From assembly GCF_006345805.1 (NCBI RefSeq), contig NC_043023.1, positions 14,260,001 through 14,324,000 on the forward strand: 64,000 bases of DNA. The letters are read 5' to 3'. This DNA is from Octopus sinensis. Lineage: Eukaryota. Below the pieces are notes generated by a model. That model had not been told where the DNA came from, made no database searches, and saw only the letters and a program-made list of their open reading frames with translations. The position numbers were made by a program, and so were the translations under genes. This document shows, piece after piece, positions 23,240 to 58,259 of this stretch (positions within the stretch are counted from its first letter, which is position 1; each line of letters starts with the position of its first letter).

Positions 23240-24150
23240 GTATCATCATCATCGTTTAACGTCTGCTTTCCATGCTGGCATGGGTTGGATGGTTTGACTG
23301 AGGACTGGCGAGCCAGATGGCTGCACCAGGCTCCAGTCTTGATCTGGCAGAGTTTCTACAGCTGGATCCCTTCCTAACGCCAACCACTCCGAGGGTAACA
23401 ATCTATCATAATTATATATATATCATTATACATCATCATCGTTTAACATCTACTTTCCATGCTGGCATGGGTTGGATGGTTTGACTGAGGACTGGCGAGC
23501 CAGATGGCTGCACCAGGCTCCAATCTTGATCTGGCAGAGTTTCTACAGCTGGATCCCCTTCCTAACGCCAACCACTCCGAGGGTAACAATCTATCATAAT
23601 TATATATATATCATTATACATCATCATCGTTTAACATCTACTTTCCATGCTGGCATGGGTTGGATGGTTTGACTGAGGACTGGCGAGCCAGATGGCTGCA
23701 CCAGGCTCCAATCTTGATCTGGCAGAGTTTCTACAGCTGGATCCCCTTCCTAACGCCAACCACTCCGAGGGTAACAATCTATCATAATTATATATATATC
23801 ATTATACATCATCATCGTTTAACATCTACTTTCCATGCTGGCATGGGTTGGATGGTTTGACTGAGGACTGGCGAGCCAGATGGCTGCACCAGGCTCCAAT
23901 CTTGATCTGGCAGAGTTTCTACAGCTGGATCCCCTTCCTAACGCCAACCACTCCGAGGGTAACAATCTATCATAATTATATATATATCATTATACATCAT
24001 CATCGTTTAACATCTACTTTCCATGCTGGCATGGGTTGGACGGTTTGACTGAGGACTGGCAAACCAGATGGCTGCACCAGGCTCCAGTCTTGACCTGGCA
24101 GAGTTTCTACAGGTGGATGCCCTTCCTAACGCCAACCACTCCGAGAGTGT
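23240..24150. repeat. 188-bp tandem repeat (about 4.7 units) made from an RTE 3' end plus flank
   Basis: Near-identical units; pseudo-ORFs recur at 23472, 23660 and 23848. Confidence 0.95.
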
Positions 24151-36360: not shown

Positions 36361-36861
36361 CGTTAGCGGGTTAGTTTTAGGGTTACGTAGATACGTCGAG
36401 ACCTCTGTATTTAAAAAGAGTACCTATATACATATAAACACATGTAATTTTTACACGTTGGGAACAGTACAGGAAAATACAAAGGTGGGGTTAGACAGGA
36501 GTGTAAAAAAATTATTTTTTTAAATTAGAAAAATAAAAATTTTAACAAAGAATAATTCCCCAATAATTATTTATTTTATTGGCCACACGGGCCCAAGACG
36601 AAGGGCAATATCAAAGAACGAATTTACAACGCACAAAACATATGGGGTTAACATCGATCAAAGTGACACAATAATAATAATTTCAAATTTTGCCACAAGT
36701 CCAGCAAAGTCGGGACACGAGATAAATCAATTACACTGACCCCAGCGTTAAACTGGTTACTTATTTCATCGACCCCCGAAACGACGAAGGGCAAAGTCGA
36801 CCTCGGCGGAATTTGAACTCAGAACGTTTAGACGGACGTAATAATAAATTGGTGTACTTAC

Positions 36862-37030
36862 GTTGGTTGCTTTGGGCGTTGGTGATCTGTAGATCGAACT
36901 CCACTGACTTGCCCAGCTTCTTCTGTTGGATAATGGCCTTCTTGAGATCGGCCAGGGATATGTGCAGCCCGTCAAAGGTGACGGTGTCATAATTGAGGCA
37001 GCTCTTGAATTTGTAGTGAACAGAAGACAT
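36862..37030 (-). CDS. RBBP6: RBBP6 coding exon 1 (N-terminal part of the DWNN ubiquitin-like domain)
   Basis: MSSVHYKFKSCLNYDTVTFDGLHISLADLKKAIIQQKKLGKSVEFDLQITNAQSNQ closely matches the RBBP6 N-terminus (human MSCVHYKFSSKLNYDTVTFDGLHISLCDLKK...DLQITNAQTKE). GTAAGT donor at 36861; 169 nt, phase 1. Confidence 0.96.
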
Positions 37031-38445
37031 GGCTCAGCTTAGCCTGGCTCTGTTCCAGGTATCGGCTGGTCGGCGGCTAGGGGCCACGTGTTACCCCTTA
37101 CCGGCACACACCAACCAATCAAACCAGGCCAAACCAAACCGATTGGCCACTTCTGTCCGTTTCTTTTTTCTTTTTTTTTTATCTTCCTTCTTCACTCAGG
37201 TGGTAGCGAGGACGACGAGTCGGTTATTTTTCCGTCAGGGATGAAGATGGGTTACAAAAGGGCCGACGAAGCAGGGGTAAGGGAGAAACGAAGAAGGGCT
37301 TTTATTTGCTCTTCCCTCGACCTTTGAACTTTCAATTCAGTTATAGTGGATGGTGTTACTACTGCTTCTGATGAACAAAACAATGGTTGGTCTGGATGTG
37401 GTTTGTATGGTGTATACCAAACAGGATTTTAGTTGTACTAACAGCAACAATAATAATAATAGTCCTTGCTGTTGAAGTTTATGGTGATCATCCGCAAGCT
37501 GGTTAATAAATATGCTCTGGAGAGGTAGTAGTAGTAGTAATAGTAGGAGCGATGGTGATGATGGTGGTGTTGCTTAAATACCTGCTTAACACAAAAAAAA
37601 ACCCAACCACTCGGGAGTGGTCAACATTAAGGCAAAGAGTGCTTTATTCCCCACCGAAAACAAAAACAGGTTGGTTGGTTGGTTGGTTTGGCGGCTCGGT
37701 CTTGGCCCTGGAGCAGCAACAGCTGTGATGGATGGTGAGGTAGGTAGGTAGGTAGGTCGGTCGGTGCTGTCACTAGGGTGGCGGAGAACCGTGTGACGTA
37801 GATCTATATATATATATATATCTTCTATCAGCTGACGAACGTGCTTAGCCTTGAAGCTGGTCCGATGCGATGTTGAAATGACTCTGCGGTGGTGGTCGTG
37901 GTGGTGTTGTCGCGTTACGCAATATCCGGTAGTGGAGGATCCGGGAAGCACAACGTAAAACAGCAGCAGCGATCTTTACAGTTGACAAAAGTGACACCCA
38001 CCACCGACAGTAGAGCGGACCGACGCTTGCAGTGAGTGGTATTGCTGTTGGACAAAACAGCGATCTTACTCCGTCCTCGGAGCAGCTGGCCGATGCTGCA
38101 GTGGTATTGCAGTTGAGAAGCAGCGTTGTACTCCCTCCTCGCAGCAGTAGTAGTAGGACCGAAGCTGCGAAGCTGAATTGTTTTAAAGCAGTTGGAACAA
38201 ACGGACGTCTGAGGCTCAACGAACGGTGCTTATAGCAGTAGAGAAACAGCAGAGCGGAAGTAGGGGGCAGCAGCAGGAAAGCAGTAGGAGTTACAAATCC
38301 ATGATTCTTTGTGTGAAGAAGGCGGGGGGGGGGGAGGAAAGACAGTTAGGTTTTCAAGTTTGAAGTAGATATAGGGAGAGTGGGGGGAGACCGTTAGGGT
38401 CGTTTATGAGATCTGGCCCTTGTAAAGGGCGTATATATTATATGT
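37031..38445 (-). promoter_or_regulatory. CpG-rich RBBP6 5' leader and proximal promoter region
   Basis: About 1.4 kb of unique, CpG-retaining sequence directly upstream of the ATG in an otherwise CpG-poor window. Weak TATA-like motif near 38431-38440. Confidence 0.6.
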
Positions 38446-44532: not shown

Positions 44533-46867
44533 TCTCATCATCATCGTTTAATGTCCGCTTTCCATGCTGGCATGGGTTGGACGGCTTGAATGTAGACTGG
44601 CGAGCCAGATGGCTGCACGAGGCTCCAATCTGATCTGGCAGAGTTTCTACAGCTGGTGCTTTTCTTAATGCCAACCACTCCGAGAGTGTAGTGGGTGCTT
44701 TTATGTGTCACCGGCAAGAGGGCCAGTCAGGTGGTCCTGGCAATGGCCATGCTCAAATGGTGTTTTTTATGTGCCACCTGCACAGGAGCCAGTCCAACGG
44801 CACTGGCAATGACCTTGCTCGAATGTTGCCTTTCACATGCCACTGGCTCAAGTGCCAGTAAGGCGACGCTGCTAATGATCACACTTGAGTGCTGCTTTTT
44901 ACATGCCACCAGCACAGGAGCCAGTCAACGACCCTGGCAATGATCACGCTTAGATGGTGCTCTTAGCACTCCACTAGCACAGATGCCAGTCAAGCGGTGC
45001 TGTCATTGAATTTGATTTCGATTTCACTTGCCTCAACAGGTCTTCGCAAGCAGAGTTTAGAGTACAATGAAGGAAAGGTATGCACAAATGGGCTGGTTAT
45101 ACCCCTGGCATAGGCCACGAGGTTATGGTCTTACTTGGCTTGCCGGGTCTTCTCAAGCACTGCATATTTCCAAAGGTCCCAGTCACTAGTCATTTCCTTG
45201 GTGAGGCCCAATGTTCGAAGGTCATGCTTCACCACCTCATCCCAGGTCTTCCTGGTTCTACTTCTTCCATAGGTTCCCTCAACCACTAGGGTGTGACACT
45301 TTTTCACACAGCTATCCTCATCCATTCTCGCTACATGTCCATATAAGCGCAGTCGTCTCTCTTGCCCACCATATCTGATGATTCTTAGGTCCAACTTTTC
45401 TCTCGAGATACTTACACTCTGTCGAGTATACACACTGACATTACACATCCATCGGAGCATACTGGCTTCATTCCTTGTAAATTTATGCATGTCCTCAGCA
45501 GTCACAGCCCATGTTTCACTGCCATGTAGCATGGCTGTTCGTACACATGCGTCATACAATCTGCCTTTTACTCTGAGTGAGAGGCCCTTTGTCACCAGCA
45601 GAGGTAAGAGCTCTCTGAACTTTGCCCAGGCTATTCTTACTCTAGCAGCTACACTTTCAGAGCACCCACCCCTGCTACTGACTTGGTCACCTAGGTAACG
45701 AAAGCTATCAACTACTTCTAGTTTTTCTCCCTGGAACATGGTAGAAGTTGGTCTCTGCATATTTTCAGAGTTTATTGCTCCTGAGCATCTGCCACATACA
45801 AAAACTATCTTCCCAGTTAGCTTTCCTTTGATATTGCTGCACTCCTTATGTGCCCATAGATTACACTGGGTACATCTTATAGAGTTTCTACCTACACCTT
45901 TTCTACAGATCGAGCAGGGCCATCTACCTGAAGGGATTTGTGGTTTGTCTGCCTTCCTACTTATTAGGACTTTGGTTTTAGCTAGGTTGACTCTAAGGCC
46001 CTTCAATTTTAATCTTTGCTTCCACACCTGAAAATTCTCTAGTTCTGATAGTGACTCAGCAATTAAAGCAAGGTCATCAGCATAGAGGAGCTCCCAGGGG
46101 TATCCTGTCTTGAATTCCTCCATTATTGCCTGGAGGACTATGATAAATAGGAGGGGGCTGAGGACTGAACCTTGGTGGACCCCTACCTCTACCCTGAATT
46201 CTTCACCGTACTCATTGCCAACCCTCACCTTTCTGACAGCGTCCATGTACATGGCTTGCACGGCTCTCACTAACCATTCATCTATCCCTAGTTTCCTCAT
46301 TGACCACCAGATAAGGGATCGGGGGCCCTGTCAAAGGCTTTCTCCATGTCAACAAAAGCCAGGTACAGGGGCTTATCTTTGGCTAGGTATTTCTCCTGCA
46401 GCTGTCTTACTAGAAATATAGCATCAGTGGTGGTTTTCCCTGGCACGAAACCGAACTGGGTCTCATCCAAACTGACTCTCTCCCTAATTAGTTGGGCTAT
46501 GACCCTCTCCATGATCTTCATTACCTGATCCAACAGCTTGATACCTCTGTAATTATTTGTATCTAAAGCATCACCTTTACCTTTGTAGCAGTAGACTATG
46601 GTGCTGCTACACCAGTCATTGGGTATGACTCCTTCGTGAATCACCTGGTTAACTATACGGGTGACTAGGCTATAGCTGACACTGCCAGATATTTTGAGCA
46701 TCTCTGCAGCAATTCCTGCAGGGGGCTTTTAATTGCTTTATCTACCAAGGTACTGTCAACTCGGATAGCTGGTCCCTCTGTTGGGTCGACATTTGGTAGA
46801 CTCTCTTTCTCCCATTAATTCTCTTTATTGAGCAACCTTTCATTGTGGTGTCTTCATGCAGCAACCT

Positions 46868-46870
<3 letters not shown>
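44533..46870 (-). mobile_element. 5'-truncated, frameshifted RTE-clade LINE with 3' UTR and (ATG)n tail
   Basis: ORFs 46297-46701 and 45131-46300 give RT motifs YKGKGD..NYRGIKLL, QFGF, AFVDMEKAFD, GVHQGSVLSPLLF, LLYADD and FRYLG, plus the RTE C-terminal HGSETW...RLRLYGHVARM. Confidence 0.93.
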
Positions 46871-46914
<44 letters not shown>

Positions 46915-46917
<3 letters not shown>

Positions 46918-47944
46918 ATAGTGGCCCTCTCAGATATGCCCTCAAATGCCCGGATAGCCACTCTGGTAAGTTATGCAGACGATACGAAAGTCTCGCAGAA
47001 AATACAGAACCCCAGCGATGTTGCACACCTGCAGCAGGAGTTGGACTCAATCTACAGATGGGCTGAGGATAATAATATGCAGTTTAATGCTGTAAAATTC
47101 CAGGCCCTGCGCTACCAGCATCCAAAACTGAATATTAAACTTACAGGATACACCAATCCACAGGGAATTTCAATCCCAGAGCCTAAGTCTGTGAGGGACC
47201 TGGGTATCGACATGAGTGATGATACCTCTTTCCAAGTGCACATTACCAGGATGGCGACAAAGTGCAGACGACTGCCTGGGTGGATCCTAAGAACATTCAG
47301 AACCAGAGATAAGGAAACCATGATGGTCCTCTGGCGGACATTCGTCCTCAGCCATCTAAATTACTGCTCACAGCTATGGTCACCCACCAGTGTGAAATTA
47401 ACAGCGGACCTTGAAGCAATCCAGAGAAGATTCACAAAGAAGATCGTCTCTTTGCAACAGCTCAGCTACTGGGAAAGGTTGAAACAGCTAAGACTCTACT
47501 CCCTGGAGAGAAGATGGGAGAGGTATGCAGTAATATATGTCTGGAAGATCCTAGAAGGAATTGTACCAAATTTTGGCATTGTAAGCTACACCAATGCTAG
47601 AACGGGACGACACTGCATAGTGCCAAAGATCCCAGCAATGCCATCACGCTTCAGGACCAGCTTCTGCAACAGCCTGGGTTTCAAGGGCCCACAGCTTTTA
47701 ATATTCTCCCAAAGAGTCTGAGGAACTTGCACAAAGTAGATGTAGCGGTTTTTAAATCAAAGCTGACCTCTTCCTGTCGAGAGTCCAGATGAACCTACCA
47801 CGGCAAGAGGTGCAAATGAGAGTAGCTGTATCAAACTCCATTCTTCACCAAGTGCCACATATTGGGGAAGTTCTTCGTAATAAATTGTAGCACAAAACGG
47901 TGGTGCATCAGCATGGCCGCAGCTCTGAGCTGAAACTAGAGAAA

Positions 47945-54301: not shown

Positions 54302-54764
54302 TATATATATACTACCAGTATATCTATCTATCTATATATATATATACATTATATATATATACAAATATATATATATACAAATATATATATATACATATAT
54401 ATATATATACATATATATATATAACATATCTATATACATATATATAGTATACATATATATATAACATATATATATATACATATATATATATACATATATA
54501 TATATACATATATATATATACATATATATATAATACATATATATACATATATATATATATACAGATATATACATATATATATACATATATATACATATAT
54601 ATATACATATATATATATATACATATATATATACATATATAATATATACATATATATACATATATATATATACATATATATATATACATATATATATATA
54701 CATATAGTTACATATATATATAATATACATATATATATACATACATATTATACATATAACATAC

Positions 54765-54803
<39 letters not shown>

Positions 54804-54973
54804 CATATATATTACATTATATATATACACATATATATATACTACATACTAATATATACATATACATATATATATATACTATATATACATATATATATAT
54901 ACATATACATACATAATATATACATATATATACATATACATACATATACATACATATATATATATATATATAT
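54302..54973. repeat. (TA)n/(TACA) microsatellite
   Basis: Directly visible. Confidence 0.97.
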
Positions 54974-55416
54974 CAACATGTGGAACTGTTAATCCACATG
55001 TTTTTTTTTCTCTCTCTCGTATTATTTTCTCTCCTCATTCCTTTCTGAAGAGGAGCATCGGCTTGAAACATCAAAAATTCTTCCATTTTTCTCAGTCTTA
55101 AACTAATACACCCTATTTGTTGTTCCTTGACCTATCTCTGTCATTTGCTTTTTATACAATTTTGAACAGCAGGCACAGGAGTCACTGTGTGGTAAGAAGA
55201 TTGTTTCCCAACCACATGGTACTGGGTTCAGTCCCACTGCATGGCACCATGGGCTGACCATATTCTTGTGAGTGGATATGGTAGATGGAAACTGAACAAA
55301 GAAGATTGTGTATGTGTGTGTGTGTGTATGTATGTATATATATATATATATCACCTCAGACGTATCACCTCAGTGGTCAAGCTATTGTCACCCTGCTTGG
55401 TGGGTTTCCCCACACG

Positions 55417-56165
55417 ATACAGCTATGGGTCAGACCCGATTCTGATTGGTCAAAACATTGATGACGTCTCGTTCTGCTGGACTAGCCACCTAACTGGATG
55501 ATTGTTCAAAACATTGATGACGTCTCGTTCCGCTGGACTAGCCACCTAACAGGATACAGTCATGGGTCAGATCTAATACAGCTATGGGTCAGACCCAATT
55601 CTGATTGGTCAAAACATTGATGACGTCTCGTTCTGCTGGACTAGCCACCTAACTGGATGATTGCTCAAAACATTGATGACGTCTCGTTCCGCTGGACTAG
55701 CCACCTAACAGGATACTGTCATGGGTCAGATCTAATACAGCTATGGGTCAGACCCAATTCTGATTGGTCAAAACATTGATGACGTCTCGTTCTGCTGGAC
55801 TAGCCACCTAACAGGATGATTGTTCAAAACATTGATGACGTCTCGTTCCGCTGGACTAGCCACCTAACAGGAGACAGTCATGGGTCAGATCTAATACAGC
55901 TATGGGTCAGACCCGATTCTGATTGGTCAAAACATTGATGACGTCTCGTTCTGCTGGACTAGCCACCTAACAGGATGATTGGTCAAAACATTGATGACGT
56001 CTCGTTCTGCTGGACTAGCCACCTAACAGGATGATTGGTCAAAACATTGATGACGTCTCGTTCTGCTGGACTAGCCACCTAACAGGATGATTGGTCAAAA
56101 CATTGATGACGTCTTGTTCCGCTGGACTAGCCACCTAACAGGATACAGCCATGGGTCAGATCTAA
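55417..56165. repeat. Higher-order tandem array: 56-bp monomer x10 in a 159-bp superstructure
   Basis: Monomer TGATTGGTCAAAACATTGATGACGTCTCGTTCYGCTGGACTAGCCACCTAACAGGA, grouped 2-2-2-4 and separated by a 47-bp linker. Confidence 0.95.
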
Positions 56166-56555
56166 TTTTGATTCGCCAAAAAAATGATGACGTATTTCTT
56201 CCGTGGCCAAACTGTCGTTCCACTTGGTTGGTTTCCTAACAGGATATATTTGTTGAGACTGGGTTTTGATTGGTTTGGAACTATATGACGTCAGTGAAAA
56301 ATGCAAGTGACCACAGCTAAGCTGAGCTGATATAAACCCAACAATCACAAAATTCACCAAAATTATACGAACAGACACCAACCAAAAATCATTACTGTTG
56401 CTCCCATTGGAACACAAGGTAAAATCTAAAATGAACTCCTCGCTTTTTCAAGAACATGAATTTTTTATACTCTATTGAATGTATGTCACAATTATGAACT
56501 ACAACACCATACTCTTTAAAACATATAGCATGAACTCTCTTTATTATATATAATT

Positions 56556-56600
56556 TTTTTTGATAAGGTTCATCATTTCAAGAACCGAAACATGTTAAAA
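56556..56600 (+). ncRNA. Type-I hammerhead-like motif, U3-A8 core variant
   Basis: TTTT-TTGATAA-GGTTC-atcatttcaa-GAACC-GAAA-CATG-TT-AAAA: perfect stem II, palindromic stem III ACATGT, GUU triplet. Stem I is weak (A-U only). Confidence 0.55.
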
Positions 56601-56654
56601 AATAAAAATTAAAATTTGTCTAATATAGCAGCATTTTCAAACTTCATTTTTTAC

Positions 56655-57812
<1,158 letters not shown>

Positions 57813-57860
57813 TTGATAGATAGATAAGGCATGGCGCATGGTAAGAAGTTTGCTTCCCAA

Positions 57861-57931
<71 letters not shown>

Positions 57932-58259
57932 CACATATATATATGTAGGTATATATGTGTGTATTTGTGTGTCTGTGTTTGTCCCCTTTCCATCGCCTGA
58001 CAACCGATGTTGGCAAAAAAGGTCGATAAAATAAGTACTAGGATTTCAAAGAATAAGTCCTGGGACCGATTCATTTGACTGAATGTGGTGCTCCAGCATG
58101 ACCACAGTCAAATGACTGAAACAAGTAAAAGAGTGTATATATCTATCTATCTATATATATATATGTATATATATATGTGTATATATATATATGTGTGTGT
58201 GTGTATATATATACATATGTATGTATATCCGTATATATGTATACGTATATATGTATGTA

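Follow-up and report, generated by a model that had tools for sequence, protein, structure and literature searches.

A Neptune-type Penelope-like pseudo-LTR in Octopus sinensis with a putative multiplied CCAAT/CRE promoter module

In this study, we analyzed a 1.3-kb noncoding stretch within a window of 64,000 nucleotides from the genome of Octopus sinensis (contig NC_043023.1, positions 14,260,001 to 14,324,000; all plain coordinates below are those of the window). We consider it probable that this stretch (55351..56657, plus strand) is the 5'-truncated 3' end, or pseudo-LTR, of an autonomous Neptune-type Penelope-like retrotransposon lying in a TA microsatellite, and that the tandem array inside it likely consists of multiplied copies of the upstream CCAAT/CRE module belonging to a TATA promoter, under whose control the downstream DNA would come. 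The analysis shows to which family the stretch belongs, that it is truncated, into what target it was inserted and where its fixed 3' end lies, that the motifs are conserved and the number of units varies between copies, and that the splice donor is used in sister copies. The class of element is known; what is of interest here is the anatomy of the promoter, its conservation and turnover, and two junctions to host exons.

Results

The segment 56170-56640 is a dispersed repeat, for which a genome search gave 1613 candidates, and all 40 that were scored matched. In longer copies, the array sits just behind a gene encoding a reverse transcriptase (RT) plus a GIY-YIG endonuclease (EN), and in 23 of 49 distinct copies the array directly follows the end of the endonuclease gene; full-length copies have the pseudo-LTR in front of ORF1 as well. 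The coding domains lie outside the window; in the parent copies (proteins P0001 and P0002), ORF2 matches RVT_1 and GIY-YIG above the Pfam cut-off. L036 and L037, which may represent a single locus present twice in the assembly, display the order pseudo-LTR, ORF1, ORF2, pseudo-LTR, as a direct repeat. The text of PMC8557442 gives as hallmarks of Penelope-like elements pseudo-LTRs formed by partial tandems, 5' truncation, inverted 5' arms, an optional tail of 30-40 nt and microsatellite targets, and we read the present element as Penelope-like because it has the tandem pseudo-LTRs, the tail and the inverted arms. Of the EN+ marks, a C-terminal GIY-YIG domain after the RT, partial-tandem pseudo-LTRs, inverted 5' arms, the optional tail and a hammerhead motif were found. 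The RT-EN linker of the parent ORF2 reads CX4CX2C (CGRSNCGIC or CGRPNCRIC), and in a by-eye comparison with rows of the PMC8557442 supplement, this linker and its spacing fit Neptune and not Nematis, which according to the text of that paper is without a ~20-aa insert in the region. The linker, its spacing and the microsatellite targets would accordingly place the parent in the Neptune clade.

The first-pass annotation recognized no described family, a statement that falls since the same sequence is the truncated end of an autonomous RT and GIY-YIG element of known class, and its alternative of a free-standing portable enhancer gives way to a pseudo-LTR of that element. It named as a refuting outcome that array and downstream segment never co-occur at other loci; they do co-occur, as 27 of the 30 loci retrieved with the array, the window included, have a hammerhead no more than 900 nt away.

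The window copy begins ~270 nt beyond the position of the endonuclease stop codon in full-length copies, and its 5' junction (55350..55373, plus strand) contains a 10-nt duplication in which ATCACCTCAG occurs twice; it is therefore a 5'-truncated insertion. Its target is represented by a (GT)n/(TA)n tract abutting the 5' junction (55310..55351) and a (TA)n-type tract downstream (56659..57956), with a further (TA)n-type tract in the upstream context (54319..54973), and such insertion into microsatellites is a Neptune criterion. The fixed 3' end, CTTCATTTTTTACA (56642..56657, plus strand), places the end of the element at 56655-56657, about 30 nt beyond the 56625 proposed initially; an optional tail of ~40 nt is missing from the window copy. 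The 81 distinct 3' ends fall into three groups: 35 border immediately on (TA)n or (CA)n, 26 have the tail and nothing more of the element, and 20 pass through the ~40-nt tail into ORF1. Copies are 5'-truncated at variable points, with no common fixed 5' boundary seen, and insertions with head-to-head inverted arms account for 4 of the first 30 loci.

Rather than the single ORF usually described for EN+ Penelope-like elements, the parent has two overlapping ones. ORF1 (465-466 aa, intact in 4 of 30 copies) has a conserved helical core common to its relatives; searches returned no Pfam family above the cut-off, a best Atlas score of 0.75 and five unnamed homologues, and a comparison with the N-terminal domain found in relatives that have one ORF gave no support for homology (hhalign probability of 0.95%). 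It overlaps ORF2 in the -1 frame at T TTT TTA, with the slippery heptamer in frame. The T6 run occurs in 44 of 47 distinct copies (six loci were unmatched) and the T6A site in seven of the eight family-2 copies that reach it, while among seven relatives with 44-55% identity, five of them from one record set, six have T6A and the seventh T6G, and their ORF2 has no upstream Met. An in-frame ATG located 29 nt downstream of the site in 46 of the 47 copies counts against frameshifting, and a search for a downstream stimulatory stem-loop or pseudoknot gave z > +1 and no pseudoknot for subfamilies A and B, with candidates only in family 2 and L133 (two of nine sequences). Judged by its conserved in-frame heptamer, though not by a stimulatory structure, the parent could thus carry a programmed -1 frameshift signal. 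We do not take a single ORF as defining because the legend to Fig. 1 of PMC8557442 states that ORF1 can be separated by a frameshift (the legend text names no clade) and because a killifish Neptune with two ORFs appears in the available text of PMC12602865; a description of Neptune frameshifting in this layout was not found in the literature searched, figures and subscription papers excepted. The fused 850-aa ORF of L039 was rejected as the form of the family, being a single T7 copy among 47. Two side observations concern these reading frames. ORF1 of the otherwise full-length L037 is interrupted (L037:1723-3023; G000:C27 near 17.16 Mb) by a DNA transposon with 39-bp inverted ends, which we take from its translation to be mariner-like. 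The ORF2 relatives P0037, P0042, P0057, P0076, P0082, P0099 and P0117 are filed under the names of bivalve bacterial symbionts and are probably host DNA inside symbiont assemblies.

The array (55417..56144, plus strand), likely an amplified promoter module, contains ten 56-bp monomers with cores at 55455-56100, each of which carries TGACGTC. These monomers are not contiguous: a 159-bp higher-order unit, composed of a 47-bp spacer and two monomers, occurs three times and is followed by a spacer and four monomers, and TRF reports the repeat at 55417-56032 with 97% matches. A diverged 11th CCAAT/CRE-like unit follows at 56170..56200, then a proximal GATTGG (56268..56293, with the perfect CRE palindrome TGACGTCA at 56286), found in all five aligned subfamily representatives, and a TATA-like box, GATATAAA, at 56329..56336, where subfamily B has TATAAA at the same place; all three lie on the plus strand. 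The first-pass annotation had described this anatomy correctly, monomer number, CRE sites, diverged copies and TATA-like box included, with the tally of reverse CCAAT boxes corrected from six to seven of ten (ATTGG). A count with a 25-nt core at up to six mismatches gives 11 units for the window copy and 1-7 for each of 48 other copies (L003 is undercounted in this way and has eight cores by another count, so that the range is 1-8), and a genome search with the array found none longer among the 40 scored of 631 candidates. Because no other examined copy is as long, slippage or unequal exchange at the window locus itself is the likely origin of the ten monomers.

Comparison between subfamilies supports the promoter-like motifs. 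Copies L033 and L056 are 93.8% identical at the endonuclease end and 92.5% from the hammerhead to the end, and only 70-72% identical in the promoter region, and still each of the five aligned subfamily sequences has kept GATTGG, TGACGTCA, a TATA-like box and AAGGTA. Among metagenome relatives with 37-50% endonuclease identity, five of eight have 3-5 TGACGT within 250 nt past the stop codon, against no more than 0.14 in shuffled sequence (one record set supplies three of the five, leaving three independent records), and none of seven more distant elements has such a cluster. Because the motifs persist across ~70%-identical spacers and CRE clusters recur in these five relatives, the array likely represents an amplified CCAAT/CRE/TATA promoter module that undergoes turnover. 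NF-Y and CREB/ATF-type factors would bind its units, transcription would start near 56360, and in a partial-tandem element the upstream pseudo-LTR would drive ORF1 and RT-EN; by its motifs, the promoter or enhancer may be cAMP responsive.

The array is not required for the clade, since subfamily C (L068 and L080; L068:790-1350) combines near-identical ORFs with a different pseudo-LTR that has no CCAAT/CRE units, and since a sister family, 65% identical and represented by 12 loci, is also without an array. Recombination between pseudo-LTR types is suggested by subfamily A, which has its array in common with B but the last 20 nt ahead of the splice donor in common with C. The sister family (family 2) is a second abundant Neptune family (L111-L130 and L280-L291; 1390 candidates) with a short 3' end of ~300 nt, (TA)n targets and the same T6A site, in which a descriptor search for hammerheads at the 3' end gave no match.

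The spread of subfamily C and family 2 without an array also favors a different account of the repeats, which we regard as unlikely, namely, that the pseudo-LTR is a Neptune one but the array is a neutral minisatellite expansion, the real promoter being internal and TATA-less and the motifs by-products. Such an internal, TATA-less promoter, along with a 5'-UTR intron, is described for the pseudo-LTR of Drosophila virilis Penelope in the available text of Schostak et al. (2008, PMC2377424), and the longest array sits in a truncated copy that is unable to transpose by itself. Against neutrality, the motifs are kept while the spacers diverge to ~70% identity, and CRE clusters recur at the same place in distant relatives.

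Farther downstream, the splice donor AAG/GTAAAA is present on the plus strand (56416..56424, cut between 56418 and 56419), as first reported, and is used by sister copies to join host exons. None of the sequencing runs with the element is recorded as RNA; 14 are guessed to be RNA, all in the form of contigs, and for junctions we aligned the contigs of four runs to window positions 56290-56560 and those of four runs to L055. One X3 contig departs from the window sequence at the donor and continues at a single genomic site (C1:102766221), behind a ttttgtttcag acceptor and with a GT donor 131 nt later. The sole same-strand donor within 120 kb upstream of this exon is that of copy L022, 110.9 kb away; with 148 exact copies of the window-type donor motif genome-wide, such proximity has, by arithmetic, a chance of ~0.3%. 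One X9 contig departs at the subfamily-B donor (on L055; subfamily B/AB donors number 467 exact copies) into an ATG-bearing C22 exon behind ttttccag. No donor-bearing copy was found in the 210 kb upstream of the C22 exon, a region with two assembly gaps, one of them 3.8 kb away, and a Pfam search of 20 kb downstream of both junction exons gave no hits. The X9 loose ends at 56424 and at L055:1090 (a mixed consensus of two contigs) have no exact genomic match, and the X12 loose end at 56422 was rejected as a splice, as it equals the genomic sequence of subfamily C. As an observation on the C22 host exon itself, it lies in L211 (G000:C22:15161514, minus strand) and encodes a 53-aa protein start without a Pfam hit, presumably resembling METTL27-type methyltransferases.

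The pseudo-LTR donor thus works in sister copies, joining host exons at canonical acceptors in what is probably RNA, and these contigs come from sister copies, none being specific to the window copy. They are evidence of splicing, and exonization inside a host transcript could give the same joints as initiation; given that this donor is linked to far-off host exons in contigs that are probably RNA, it may be that transcripts of host genes begin in copies of the sister type. Where a copy stands alone, as in the window, the donor would find host acceptors in place of its own.

This raises the question of whether a neighboring host gene has recruited the window copy, either as an enhancer that responds to cAMP or as an alternative promoter, with selection on the array for strength, which we consider improbable. 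Its array is the longest among 49 copies, sister copies splice over 111 kb, and ~41 kb downstream on the same strand lies a thioredoxin/phosducin-like gene whose whole coding exon is behind a canonical acceptor; however, no junction to this exon is among the loose ends listed (17 are left out), and a GPCR gene on the opposite strand lies in between. Regarding these neighbors, the thioredoxin/phosducin-like gene (L295:3310-3950, plus strand) has its whole coding sequence in one exon, with the acceptor at C27:14357310, and the GPCR gene (L292:2328-4238, minus strand, ~10 kb downstream of the element and beyond the window) is an intronless rhodopsin-family gene of 637 aa with long Thr/Ala and Gly/Ser/Pro tracts, one of them inside the 7TM region. 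About 18 kb upstream of the element, a DWNN-domain exon with a start codon, the first coding exon of an RBBP6-like gene, points away from it (36764-37033, minus strand). Elsewhere in the window, two LINE reverse-transcriptase fragments lie back to back (45134-46728, minus strand, with a PHD-like match inside the RT frame, and 46819-47718, plus strand), and a 188-bp tandem repeat (23244-24145; 4.8 copies, 98% matches) derives from the end of a common dispersed repeat.

The last part of the pseudo-LTR contains a minimal type I hammerhead (56554..56602, plus strand), with the U3-A8 core at 56560-56566, stem II at 56567-56586, a palindromic ACAUGU helix III, a weak A-U stem I and a predicted cut after 56596 (GUU). 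In agreement with the first-pass annotation, the U3-A8 hammerhead is there (56560-56596), and it is the only descriptor match on either strand of the window; six of 2000 shuffles of the 1.3 kb contain the motif by chance, and an Rfam scan of the window gave no match at the gathering score. Among 81 distinct ends, the TTGATAA core is present in 71 and GAAACATGTTA in 66, and subfamily B closes stem II with a G-U pair. The fold corresponds to the minimal U3-A8 variant of PMC4209133, in which helix III is likewise palindromic and for which dimer dependence and low activity are predicted, and the ribozyme here is likewise predicted to be dimer dependent and to cleave poorly. The AATAAA noted earlier at 56601 is confirmed; as AATAAA/ATTAAA (56601..56613, plus strand), it is a candidate poly(A) signal, found in one or the other form in all 72 ends scored. 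A candidate 3' splice acceptor of the element's own 5'-UTR intron, TAATATAG/CAG/ (56620..56631, plus strand), lies 30 nt beyond the hammerhead cut site as TAATAYAG/CAG; 75 of the 81 ends could be scored at position -3, and every one of them has T or C there, which is weak evidence because a single change between subfamilies accounts for it. If an intron ran from 56419 to about 56628/56631, the message would lose the hammerhead together with the poly(A) signal; the contigs of four runs aligned to L055 contain no such spliced joint, unspliced contigs cover the region, and one of them reads from there into ORF1.

The hammerhead near the end, the lack of an ORF in the window copy and the numerical excess of the 3' segment (~1600 candidate copies) over the start of ORF1 (81) had made a small nonautonomous retroelement or retrozyme of fixed structure, borrowing Penelope enzymes, conceivable, but it is very improbable, as 5' ends are variable, show no fixed boundary and reach the RT-EN gene in longer copies, and the element has a single hammerhead with none in the monomers. 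The earlier description "Penelope-terminal or retrozyme-like" thereby keeps its first part and loses both the second and the term small nonautonomous, given the autonomous parent. Animal non-LTR retrozymes (bioRxiv 10.64898/2026.07.22.740005) are, in the accessible part of that preprint, similarly noncoding, with a type I hammerhead related to that of Penelope-like pseudo-LTRs, but have one in each tandem unit, whereas the tandem units here have none; this class was rejected as it also requires that there be no coding parent.

Discussion

The Neptune pseudo-LTR described here shares with the clade, as presented in the text of PMC8557442, the RT, a CX2-5CxxC linker and C-terminal GIY-YIG domain, tandem pseudo-LTRs with a hammerhead, 5' truncation, inverted arms, the tail and microsatellite targets. 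It differs in that the text has one ORF, whereas ORF1 (466 aa) here overlaps ORF2 at T TTT TTA, and that text describes neither a CCAAT/CRE array nor a TATA promoter. Like the D. virilis Penelope of PMC2377424, as far as the available text goes, the pseudo-LTR would hold a promoter and a donor soon after the start; unlike it, CCAAT, CRE and TATA are of the upstream type and tandemly multiplied, and junctions to host exons occur in contigs. The hammerhead shows no substantial difference from those of PMC4209133, with which it shares the U3-A8 core, an extra base before stem II, a short palindromic helix III and a weak helix I, the GUU cut triplet and A-U-only stem I being its particulars. In the literature searched, figures and subscription papers excepted, we found no description of this anatomy, that is, of CRE/CREB in Penelope-like pseudo-LTRs or of chimeric Penelope-like transcripts, and it was not found in the available part of the Octopus vulgaris repeat paper (PMC13282606).

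The 5'-UTR of mouse L1 consists of tandem promoter monomers in variable number, and promoters were replaced between subfamilies with near-identical ORFs. The likeness to our element lies in the variable tandem units of the putative promoter and in its replacement with ORFs kept. L1 belongs to another class of retroelements, however, and its array is internal at the 5' end, whereas the array here is at the 3' end and would act only in tandem or on neighbors.

Taking these points further, we speculate that the pseudo-LTRs of the clade are TATA promoters driven by CREB/ATF and NF-Y, with strength set by unit number, and that hundreds of solo copies (at least 615 exact donor motifs) provide host genes more than 100 kb away with alternative first exons that respond to signals, the window copy being the strongest and perhaps driving the thioredoxin-like gene 41 kb downstream. 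We offer this as a tentative and, on balance, doubtful proposal.

To our knowledge, the dissection of Penelope-like promoters has so far been limited to one or two cases. The prediction in the available text of PMC2377424, that 3' pseudo-LTRs can drive downstream genes or exons, has found little direct support in the literature searched. The pseudo-LTR analyzed here offers a readable, putative modular promoter, natural alleles of 1-11 units, subfamilies that seem to have swapped promoters while keeping their ORFs and two donor-to-host-exon junctions, which opens the type of promoter, the effect of dosage and the consequences for the host to direct tests. Through its CRE clusters, expression of the element and of neighboring genes could be tied to cAMP or stress signaling.
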